Below, piece by piece: positions 47,298 to 48,936 of a stretch of DNA of 64,000 bases. The stretch is from Minisyncoccota bacterium (GTDB lineage Bacteria; Patescibacteriota; Minisyncoccia; Phycocordibacterales; UBA2100). The stretch is taken from the NCBI GenBank assembly GCA_043780835.1, contig JAYWCB010000005.1:125945-189944 (forward strand), read 5' to 3'. The position numbers and the translations under genes are program-made. The stretch's first letter is position 1. Each line of letters opens with the position of its first letter. The notes under the pieces are model-generated. The model was given only the letters and a program-made list of their open reading frames with translations. It was not told the DNA's origin and ran no database searches.

Positions 47298-47317
47298 TTC
47301 GTTTACCTCCAGCAGCC

Positions 47318-47345
47318 TCCGCATCAAGGCGTCGCCTTGATATTC
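47318..47345. repeat. REP-like palindrome (left end of RAYT element)
   Basis: GCATCAAGGCG-T-CGCCTTGATAT. Confidence 0.55.
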
Positions 47346-47995
47346 GAGGCATAGAACTCACGGGCTTCACTCAACATTGCCTCAGGGGCGCGCTGGGTTT
47401 CAATAGAAAATATATCTGCACCCAGCAGTTTTCTGACTGGATGTTTCAAATCAAGAAAAGCTCCATAGCTCGAATAGGGATACATCTGTAATGCCTTTGT
47501 AAGTTTGACCATATTTTCCACGCGGCCAACTTTCCATCCGGGCTCCGTTATTTCAGCTGGATTACAGTGAATATATTGGAGTACCCATTGGAAATATGTA
47601 TCGTCGTGGACATGACGAGATCGAAATGGTTTTACAAACAATCCACCAGTTCGCGAATGCTTGAGATTAAAATACATCGTGTATGCAGTGCCGAGTTTTT
47701 GCATAAATGTCGAAATTCCATTTTCAGTAACTTCTTTTAAAAGGAGATGGAAGTGGTTGGACATAAGACAAAAAGCACCGATAGAAACGAGTTGATCTCC
47801 GCGCTCAAGCGCAAAAATATCACGGAGAGATTTATTCCGTTGATTGCTGATGTGTACGCGTTTGGAACTGTTTGCTAAATAGATCAACGCCACAAAACGC
47901 TCGTAATCCTCTTTTGATTTAAATGTGTTGCGTTTGTCGATGCCTCGGCCATAACAGTGAAACCACTCGTCGACCGCAAAAGGATCCCGTTGCAT
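47324..47995 (-). CDS. IS200-like / REP-associated tyrosine (Y1, HUH) transposase
   Basis: FHCYGRGIDKRNTF, HUH motif SNHFHLLL, catalytic-Tyr region YTMYFN..QYIHCNPA. Confidence 0.75.
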   Translation of the reverse strand: MQRDPFAVDEWFHCYGRGIDKRNTFKSKEDYERFVALIYLANSSKRVHISNQRNKSLRDIFALERGDQLVSIGAFCLMSNHFHLLLKEVTENGISTFMQKLGTAYTMYFNLKHSRTGGLFVKPFRSRHVHDDTYFQWVLQYIHCNPAEITEPGWKVGRVENMVKLTKALQMYPYSSYGAFLDLKHPVRKLLGADIFSIETQRAPEAMLSEAREFYASNIKATP

Positions 47996-48005
47996 GAGTG
48001 CATTA

Positions 48006-48040
48006 TATCACGCATCAAGGCGTCGCCTTGATGCGTGATA
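48006..48040. repeat. REP-like perfect 17-bp-arm palindrome (right end of RAYT element)
   Basis: TATCACGCATCAAGGCG-T-CGCCTTGATGCGTGATA. Confidence 0.6.
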
Positions 48041-48189
48041 TTCGCCGTCGACTACAAGAAATCAGGCGCGTCCTGGTACGCGTCGTTATAAACAAAGACG
48101 GGACCTTGCTGTATTACAGACAGGATGAGCTCGAAAAGGTGGTGTAAAACGGAGGACAGCATGATTTATTCTGTCGCCCAAAAGAAAAA

Positions 48190-48235
48190 AGTCCGGTCAG
48201 CGTGAATGCGAACCGGACTTTTCTGTTTGCGTCAT
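48190..48235 (-). terminator. rho-independent terminator (for 48279..48854)
   Basis: AAAAGTCCGGT..ACCGGACTTTT hairpin, T-run on minus strand. Confidence 0.5.
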
Positions 48236-48259
48236 GTGCAAGGTGTCATCTTGCACACA
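48233..48259. repeat. REP-like palindrome variant (ATGTGCAAG-gtgtcat-CTTGCACAcAT)
   Basis: Shares GTGCAAGGTG core with 60551 and 62342 copies. Confidence 0.45.
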
Positions 48260-48278
48260 TCACATCTCACTTGTTTTT

Positions 48279-48854
48279 TTAGTGAGGAGCAAATCGGTGG
48301 TCGAACAGATGGGGCACGACTGCGCAACGAACTGCCCACGAAAGGAGTTCCGTCCGATCTATAGAGCCGCAGGAGAAGTACGCCATCGGATTTTTGTCAG
48401 GGGCACCTCGTTTCATAACCACGGTACCGAGTTCGCTCTGCCGTGCTTCGTGCGCGGCCCATTTCGGTATCGGGAATCCGGGACCGAAGCCGACGCTTTC
48501 TCGACCGTCGCGTGCAATTATTACGGCGATCGCGGGATCGAAAAAAAGATCCTGAATTTCCACAATGCCGCTCTCGAGCCCAAGACCGAAATCTGCGCGA
48601 ATGGCCAATTGCAGTGCAGTATTCGCTCGAGCACGGGCGCCCGACAGCATTTCATCGAATCCTTCGGGCTGATCTGCGACGCCGCTCTCAACGGTTTGTG
48701 GAAGAACCACGACTTCATAGTTGAAATGTCGGAAGCCCGTAATGACTGCCTTAATTTTGAGCGCACTTGTGCTTCCAAGTGCAACGACGCAACGTTTGCT
48801 GAATGTTTCCGACACAGTACCTCCACGGTTTGGAATGGACCCGCGCCGAATCAT
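48279..48854 (-). CDS. inosine/xanthosine triphosphatase-like (NTPase_I-T / YjjX family)
   Basis: VALGSTSALK..SGVADQPEG..ADFGLGLESG pattern; real start probably internal. Confidence 0.45.
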   Translation of the reverse strand: MIRRGSIPNRGGTVSETFSKRCVVALGSTSALKIKAVITGFRHFNYEVVVLPQTVESGVADQPEGFDEMLSGARARANTALQLAIRADFGLGLESGIVEIQDLFFDPAIAVIIARDGRESVGFGPGFPIPKWAAHEARQSELGTVVMKRGAPDKNPMAYFSCGSIDRTELLSWAVRCAVVPHLFDHRFAPH

Positions 48855-48887
48855 ACGTAGGGGTATCGAGGTGTCAACGATTCAAAT

Positions 48888-48925
48888 AAAAAGACCCGGA
48901 TTGCTTCGGGTCTTTTTATTTTGAG
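48888..48925 (-). terminator. rho-independent terminator downstream of rpsA
   Basis: AAAAAGACCCGG..CGGGTCTTTTTATTTT. Confidence 0.55.
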
Positions 48926-48936
48926 TCGTTTGTTTG

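Follow-up and report, generated by a model that had tools for sequence, protein, structure and literature searches.

Among the TnpA-Y1 proteins, IS200 subclass 1.1 is characterized by a Y---Q tyrosine motif and a length of about 150 amino acids, and subclass 2.1 by the motifs NH[YF]H, FQ, Y[IV]HLNP and SS and a length of about 238 amino acids (PMC6006769, Table 1). Subclass 2.1 equates to Bertels Group 1 and, according to Quentin et al. 2018 (PMC6006769), probably corresponds to the TIRYT of Di Nocera. A TIRtron is a gene with an element-specific pair of repeats, commonly terminal inverted repeats of the GGGGWSAS type; some are self-complementary, they can overlap the 3' end of the gene, and many have no further copy in the genome (Di Nocera et al. 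2013, PMC3733652). The repetitive extragenic palindrome (REP)-associated tyrosine transposases (RAYTs) carry the motif NP(L/V)(R/K)xG beside their tyrosine (Nunvar 2010, PMC2817692). When the RAYT/IS200 literature was searched in combination with the Candidate Phyla Radiation (CPR) or Parcubacteria, the top-ranked papers mentioned neither CPR nor Parcubacteria. Here we describe a Y1/HUH gene flanked by paired hairpins in a 64,000-nt stretch of the genome of a Minisyncoccota bacterium (contig JAYWCB010000005.1, positions 125,945 to 189,944), hereafter the window. We think it probable, although well short of certain, that this locus is a resident single-copy module of the REPtron/TIRtron kind, consisting of a class-2 Y1/HUH endonuclease/ligase acting on single-stranded DNA (ssDNA) and two copies of its own recognition palindrome.

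A preliminary description, made from the letters alone, had placed a single gene with HUH and tyrosine motifs between near-identical hairpins, and this anatomy was confirmed: an exact 22-nt repeat, CGCATCAAGGCGTCGCCTTGAT, occurs on both sides of the open reading frame (ORF), with copy 1 at 47320-47341 and copy 2 at 48011-48032. The 8-mer GATATTCG that had been reported after both hairpins is likewise present at each (Table 1). The right hairpin is a perfect palindrome as claimed, but measures 37 nt (18-1-18) rather than 35 bp, and its center lies 28 nt 5' of the Y1 start codon. The perfect 9-1-9 stem of the left hairpin is nested in an outer GCCTC/GAGGC helix and doubles as the coding end of the Y1 ORF, where it specifies residues IKATP and the stop codon; a C-terminal K-A/V-T/S-P is kept in homologues because the hairpin itself is conserved. 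Folding energies as ssDNA are about -21 kcal/mol for the right hairpin (z = -6.6) and about -11 kcal/mol for the left one (z about -3). The central T is on the plus strand in both, i.e. the copies are in direct orientation. The arrangement had been called classic for RAYTs, which is right as to cognate flanking hairpins and wrong as to their orientation, as classical RAYT flanks are inverted. The sequence CGAATAT stands 5' of both window copies on the gene strand; this common flank is locus-specific and was not seen in the loci that we designate L088 and L092. Rfam gave no match at either hairpin, with sub-threshold matches only at the terminator at 48181-48228. A scan for intrinsic terminators and sigma-70 consensus promoters called neither Y1 hairpin; it missed the extended -10 box because it demands a -35 hexamer.

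Table 1. Coordinates of the Y1 locus and its adjoining features in the window
Feature	Position	Strand	Description
Y1/HUH endonuclease gene (class-2 TnpA-Y1, RAYT/TIRYT-like)	47324..47995	minus	223 aa ORF
Gene-distal (3') cognate hairpin	47315..47350	.	9-1-9 stem-loop ATCAAGGCG-T-CGCCTTGAT at 47323-47341
Gene-proximal (5') cognate hairpin	48005..48041	.	perfect 18-1-18 palindrome, 37 nt
GATATTCG 8-mer adjoining left hairpin	47339..47346	+	
GATATTCG 8-mer, outer end of right palindrome	48037..48044	+	
Extended -10 box TGATATAAT on gene strand	48002..48010	minus	6 nt between box end and ATG
Bidirectional terminator (context only)	48181..48228	.	far edge of extra DNA relative to relatives without Y1

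The gene belongs to a family of more than 1000 homologues, mostly from Patescibacteria (Paceibacteria, Kaiserbacteria). A search among 5.8 billion proteins gave a closest non-self relative of only 63% identity, and in a profile search 815 clusters at 50% identity reached E <= 1e-30. Eighty loci were taken from species-representative genomes, and 77 were usable for hairpin analysis. A perfect hairpin pair with a common apical stem flanks the gene in 50 of these 77 (about 60 by a looser criterion). Across the 50 loci, the upstream hairpin has its median center 34 nt before the ATG, and the 3' hairpin sits at or shortly past the stop codon (median center about 10 nt past), overlapping the coding end in 15 loci. 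Stems vary among loci and agree within each locus, with all four Watson-Crick pair types found at lower stem positions, and the apex AGG-N5-CCT is present in 34 of the 50. The flanking hairpins are cognate to the Y1 gene and co-evolve with it: 50 of the 77 related loci repeat this layout, each with covarying hairpins of its own. The loops of a pair point the same way (direct) in 27 loci and opposite ways (inverted) in 18, with flips between close relatives. Paralogues of the same genome bear different hairpins, as seen for two genes in L101 and for L020 versus L030. The second L101 paralogue, at L101:7000-7800, belongs to the genome of homologue P0002, is 52% identical to the first and lies 3.6 kb from it; its own doubled hairpin, CAGAGGTGACACCTCCGA-loop-TCGGAGGTGTCACCTCTG, has the loop TTT upstream and AA downstream.

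A third locus-specific hairpin lies in-frame within the Y1 coding sequence in 11 loci by strict criteria. Twelve such loci are listed (L012, L014, L032, L033, L035, L045, L050, L052, L062, L068, L070 and L074; e.g. L012:1107-1162), in which the hairpin is identical to the flanking copies, precedes the HUH motif at codons 52-59 in most cases and at codon 42 in L068, and is translated, for example, as LKLQGSTLEE. No relic of an in-frame hairpin was found in the window gene and its close relatives, where the best local alignment was no better than that of shuffled sequence. At L002:6651-6700, 3' of the 3' hairpin, the right arm and foot CCTTGACGCAC occur three times in near-tandem, a pattern that either repeated cleavage and joining or replication slippage could have left behind.

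The position of the 5' hairpin is tied to that of the promoter. In 39 of 50 loci, compared with 24 of 219 control regions, the space between hairpin and start codon contains a -10-like hexamer, and in 26 loci precisely 6 nt separate this hexamer from the ATG. In the window, one end of the 37-nt palindrome is overlapped by the extended -10 box. Hardly any Shine-Dalgarno-like sequences are present upstream of Y1 genes. Given the -10 position, the 6-nt gap and this near-absence, the Y1 mRNAs are probably leaderless and the 5' hairpin would therefore lie outside the transcript. We also noted a 49-amino acid candidate ORF (47998-48147) that begins within the 37-nt palindrome and ends just before the 48181-48228 terminator; it had no Pfam or PADLOC match.

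The HUH motif of the protein was located at His81 and His83 (NHFH, residues 80-83), and its catalytic tyrosine at Tyr141 (YIHCNP, residues 141-146), with Asn145 at Y+4 and an SS motif at residues 175-176. His81, His83, Tyr141, His143 and Asn145 are invariant in an alignment of 70 homologues. The protein matches Pfam Y1_Tnp (PF01797) at 32.5 bits, over the cut-off of 23. A RAYT hidden Markov model had been suggested as a check: the RAYT equivalog REP_Tyr_transpos is indeed the sole NCBIfam match, but at 40.8 bits it falls short of its cut-off of 80. The NCBIfam IS200 models gave no match at E <= 0.1. An AlphaFold (AF2) model of the protein (predicted local distance difference test score, 84) has as its best fold match in the PDB 4er8_A, the E. 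coli RAYT in complex with its REP hairpin ligand (E 1.6e-3, probability 1.0), with the TnpA structures of IS608 and ISDra2 ranking behind it; a PDB search by sequence returned only a marginal match to ISDra2 TnpA (E 0.13). The tyrosine motif is Y---NP and not the Y---Q of IS200. The RAYT motif NP(L/V)(R/K)xG is absent, the window protein reading NPAEIT and more distant members NPVKLI. The FQ position is FV in the window protein and FQ in more distant family members. The protein stands closer to RAYTs than it does to IS200 TnpA. With its motif set (NHFH/YIHCNP/SS) and its 223 residues, it would fit TnpA-Y1 subclass 2.1/TIRYT better than RAYT, an assignment made by motifs only, since Quentin et al. 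found no REP-like structures adjoining subclass 2.1 genes (PMC6006769). PADLOC and PHROGs gave no match, and hence no link to a defense system or phage protein.

The gene order S1 - Y1 - (HIT) - pth - lepB, in the same orientation, is common to the window, L088, L002 and L003. L088, from the P0002 genome, encodes a Y1 protein 63% identical to that of the window, and the Kaiserbacteria loci L003 and L002 encode proteins of 56% and 58% identity; across the four syntenic genomes, Y1 identities are about 55-66%. Pairwise identities group the window with L088 and L003 with L002, which is compatible with S1, pth and lepB and favors vertical descent of Y1 across the four genomes, albeit as a weak four-taxon test. 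Both hairpin copies have changed jointly across orthologous loci, once at a stem pair from C.G to T.A (GGCG..CGCC to GGTG..CACC) and again from A.T to G.C (ATCAAGG to GTCAAGG). The Y1 gene evolves faster than its neighbors. No second Y1 paralogue was found in the 64-kb window. In an exact-protein look-up for strain variants and empty sites, the Y1 and HIT proteins were found on one other contig only, at the same locus, and the NTPase ORF described below had no record. Conserved synteny and the lack of any near-identical copy contradict the preliminary label IS200-like if it is taken to mean an active insertion sequence; the other half of that label, RAYT-like, stands in the form of a class-2 protein with Y---NP and the fold of 4er8. 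Taken together, these comparisons describe Y1 as a gene of long residence that has been lost or moved on occasion, rather than an insertion sequence active in multiple copies.

Empty sites, which the preliminary description had proposed looking for, do exist: the HIT-S1 interval of the two closest relatives, L083 and L086 (S1 96-97% identical), holds no Y1 gene. In L086, HIT is directly followed by a terminator equivalent to the one at 48181-48228, with no palindrome relic. In L083, an unrelated 116-amino acid ORF stands between HIT and the equivalent terminator. An 11-nt match to an arm of the palindrome, GCATCAAGGCG, lies inside this ORF; as no other homology except the terminator was found, a relic at this site is unproven. 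The HIT-S1 interval as a whole is variable (window 47298-48936, L083:5433-5881, L086:4334-4467) and is empty in L086. In the window it holds, besides Y1, an NTPase_I-T gene (48279-48854), which has a separate terminator (48884-48920).

The flanking hairpins had been described as REP-type palindromes, and dispersal of that type is unproven. With the 20-mer core, no third match was found in the window at <=3 mismatches (0.00 expected from 100 shuffles), so that two copies exist in 64 kb, both at the gene and both without the GT[AG]G foot. The window has 16 strong hairpins, all unique apart from the Y1 pair. In L088 and L092, the surrounding +/-10 kb are free of extra palindrome copies. Only 22 extra hairpin copies were counted in 598 kb from 60 loci, about half of them inside the Y1 gene and the rest within 3.1 kb of it. 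The preliminary description had named two findings as contrary to it, a palindrome unique to the locus and a protein closer to canonical IS200 TnpA; within the 64 kb the palindrome does occur only at Y1, and the protein is not closer to IS200 TnpA.

A metagenome scan with GCRTCAAGGCGWCGCCTTGAYGC returned 15 loci, 4 with a Y1 gene and 11 solitary. Several of the solitary matches, located on unrelated contigs that are high in GC or Bacteroidota-like, may be terminators that match by coincidence. Two groups of copies look homologous. At L105:6957-6989 and L107:3649-3681, murC contains in-frame a perfect palindrome of 33 nt, CACCTGCGTCAAGGCGTCGCCTTGACGCAGGTG, which swaps PHLQEEYTD for THLRQGVALTQVN and adds 4 amino acids relative to 14 homologues; the palindrome shares 29 nt with the 5' hairpin of P0002, which comes from the same metagenome and has an identical contig GC of 0.532. 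The solitary copies in L095 and L096 have the GCATC variant of the window and share with it an additional ATATC flank, and their GC of 0.49-0.50 is like that of the window. Low-level copying of the hairpin is plausible on these comparisons, and no genome-wide REP family was found in the material searched. The same 23-nt palindrome, GCGTCAAGGCGWCGCCTTGACGC, was also seen on L100, L103 and L104 (GC 0.67-0.72), with conserved flanks carrying further hairpins, cagcagaccctcgctg; these repeats may be an unrelated family in another phylum. The window has, at 61511-61533, a solitary perfect hairpin, AGTGGAAGGCTAAACCTTCCACT, with the family-type AGG-N5-CCT apex and no Y1 gene nearby, which starts within the stop codon of a 287-amino acid ORF (60649-61512) without Pfam match.

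The resident single-copy module proposed above builds on the anatomy of the locus, the family-wide conservation of its layout with covariation, the RAYT-like fold and motifs, the low copy number and the long residence at a single locus. Catalysis, a single-stranded substrate, autoregulation and hairpin mobilization would be added from what is described for two analogues, E. coli TnpA-REP and the TnpA of IS608. The protein would bind the palindrome extruded as an ssDNA hairpin, exposed for example on the lagging-strand template. Tyr141 would cut near the hairpin foot, with the metal held by His81, His83 and Asn145, and the enzyme could rejoin the ends. Such cleavage and rejoining may keep both hairpin copies identical (concerted evolution), and the hairpin, or segments bounded by hairpins, might occasionally be copied elsewhere. 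Binding at the 5' palindrome would probably limit the protein's own expression, because this palindrome overlaps the extended -10 box of a putatively leaderless promoter.

Several observations weigh against this proposal. The mobilization step is opposed by the confinement of the palindrome to its two gene-flanking copies in the window, and the presence of several metagenome matches on unrelated contigs speaks against it as well. Kinship with RAYTs is opposed by the lack of the GT[AG]G foot at either window copy and by the sub-cut-off score of the RAYT equivalog, and membership of subclass 2.1 by the report that genes of that subclass have no adjoining REP-like structures. The absence of the gene from the two closest relatives and its GC, which is about 5 points under that of the rest of the window, also fit gain by transfer. 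Across the family, all 79 loci examined have a Y1 gene lower in GC than its flanks (by 8.6 points on average), though Y1 GC still tracks host GC from 0.23 to 0.50.

One rival reading is an active IS200/IS605-type insertion sequence, in which the hairpins would be the left and right ends and TnpA would excise and reinsert the 0.7-kb unit as a single-stranded circle. The direct orientation of the end hairpins, as in IS608, is in keeping with this, as are a gene 5-9 GC points under its flanks in the window and in all 79 loci, its absence from L083 and L086, the 60%-identical homologue P0005 in an unrelated context, and ISDra2 TnpA as the sole, weak, PDB match by sequence. We nevertheless regard an active insertion sequence as very unlikely. 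The best relative is 63% identical and the window has one copy in 64 kb; four genomes carry the gene at the same locus and in the same orientation, with divergence that tracks host proteins; there is no tnpB gene; and the protein has Y---NP and 223 residues in place of the Y---Q and about 150 of subclass 1.1, matches no NCBIfam IS200 model at E <= 0.1 and has a fold closer to RAYT. The RAYT-like fold and the flanking cognate palindromes could instead belong to a classical RAYT whose REP/REPIN population is genuine and genome-wide but falls outside the 64-kb window, and the solitary 23-nt palindrome copies on other metagenome contigs, including the L095/L096 GCATC variant, point the same way. 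Such a population appears decidedly improbable, since no extra copy was found in the 64 kb or around L088 and L092, all 22 extra copies over the 60 loci are in the gene or within 3.1 kb, the hairpins are direct and have no GT[AG]G foot, the RAYT model stays under its cut-off and NP(L/V)(R/K)xG is absent.

Long residence at one locus would also be expected of a fully domesticated DNA-binding protein, for which the 5' palindrome would be a double-stranded autorepressor operator and the 3' hairpin an mRNA 3'-end structure, with neither DNA cleavage nor mobility. This accounts for the placement of the 5' palindrome over the -10 box of a probably leaderless promoter, in a geometry fixed family-wide, and for the 3' hairpin within the transcript at the stop codon. 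It is unlikely all the same, as the catalytic histidines, tyrosine and asparagine are invariant in 70 homologues, something not expected if the protein only repressed; no T-tract accompanies the 3' hairpin, and the terminator scan did not call it; the same hairpin recurs in-frame inside the ORF (11 loci strict, 12 listed), around neighboring genes and in-frame inside murC; and loop orientation flips between close relatives (27 direct, 18 inverted).

Hairpins around neighboring genes were observed at L013:57-679, L023:5275-5964, L027:5343-5952 and L031:6652-7314, where the gene adjoining Y1 is enclosed with the help of a third cognate hairpin, giving an array of hairpin-gene-hairpin-Y1-hairpin; the bracketed genes are unrelated accessory ORFs of 156-202 amino acids, one of them PsbP_2-like. 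One may imagine that the Patescibacteria clade does not spread REPs but forms a self-contained system of hairpin cassettes, with the enzyme acting mainly on its own promoter, stop-codon and in-frame hairpins and capturing or exchanging adjacent hairpin-bounded cassettes. We hold this to be very doubtful. If true, it would amount to an HUH-based system that handles cassettes much as integrons do, but through single strands, or else to a gene that switches itself.

Returning to the module that we favor, several described systems bear comparison with it. Subclass 2.4, in which REP copies are in-frame inside tnpA-REP, recalls the 11-12 related loci with an in-frame third hairpin, the window excluded; however, the in-frame hairpin of our family precedes HUH (codons about 42-59) and does not lie between HUH and the tyrosine, and the subclass 2.4 motifs NH[IFV]H, WQ and YIxNNP are not those of the window family. 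IS200/IS605 TnpA proteins such as those of IS608 and ISDra2 share the Y1/HUH fold, direct hairpins at both ends and a presumed single-strand chemistry with the window locus, which differs in its Y---NP, its 223 residues, its single diverged syntenic copy and its lack of tnpB. E. coli TnpA-REP/RAYT (REPtron, 4ER8) is alike in fold, in HUH plus tyrosine with Asn at Y+4, and in being a single-copy gene flanked by cognate co-evolving hairpins; evolution faster than that of neighboring genes is a further trait of RAYTs (PMC2817692). The window locus differs from it in having direct hairpins, no GT[AG]G foot and no detected dispersed high-copy REP family, and the protein in having about 60 extra residues, no NP(L/V)(R/K)xG and an equivalog score below cut-off.

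Taken alone, the window locus is an ordinary instance of a Patescibacteria Y1 family, whose fixed geometry of a promoter palindrome, a stop-codon copy and sometimes an in-frame third makes it a compact system for probing single-copy Y1 genes. The closest known kind is TIRYT/TIRtron (subclass 2.1) and, more broadly, the REPtron. Differences from subclass 2.1 are that the window flanks are short perfect hairpins, that the AGG-N5-CCT apex is conserved in the family with no GGGGWSAS motif, and that the host belongs to Patescibacteria, which go unmentioned in PMC6006769 and PMC3733652. Shared with it are NH[YF]H, Y[IV]H-x-NP and the C-terminal SS, a length of about 220-240 amino acids, low copy number, and a gene flanked by self-complementary element-specific repeats, one of which overlaps its 3' end. 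The comparison suggests that proteins with subclass 2.1 motifs, reported without REP-like partners, can have defined co-evolving hairpins, and it extends the RAYT/TIRYT type of domesticated ssDNA enzyme with cognate hairpins, as a large family, to the reduced genomes of Patescibacteria.

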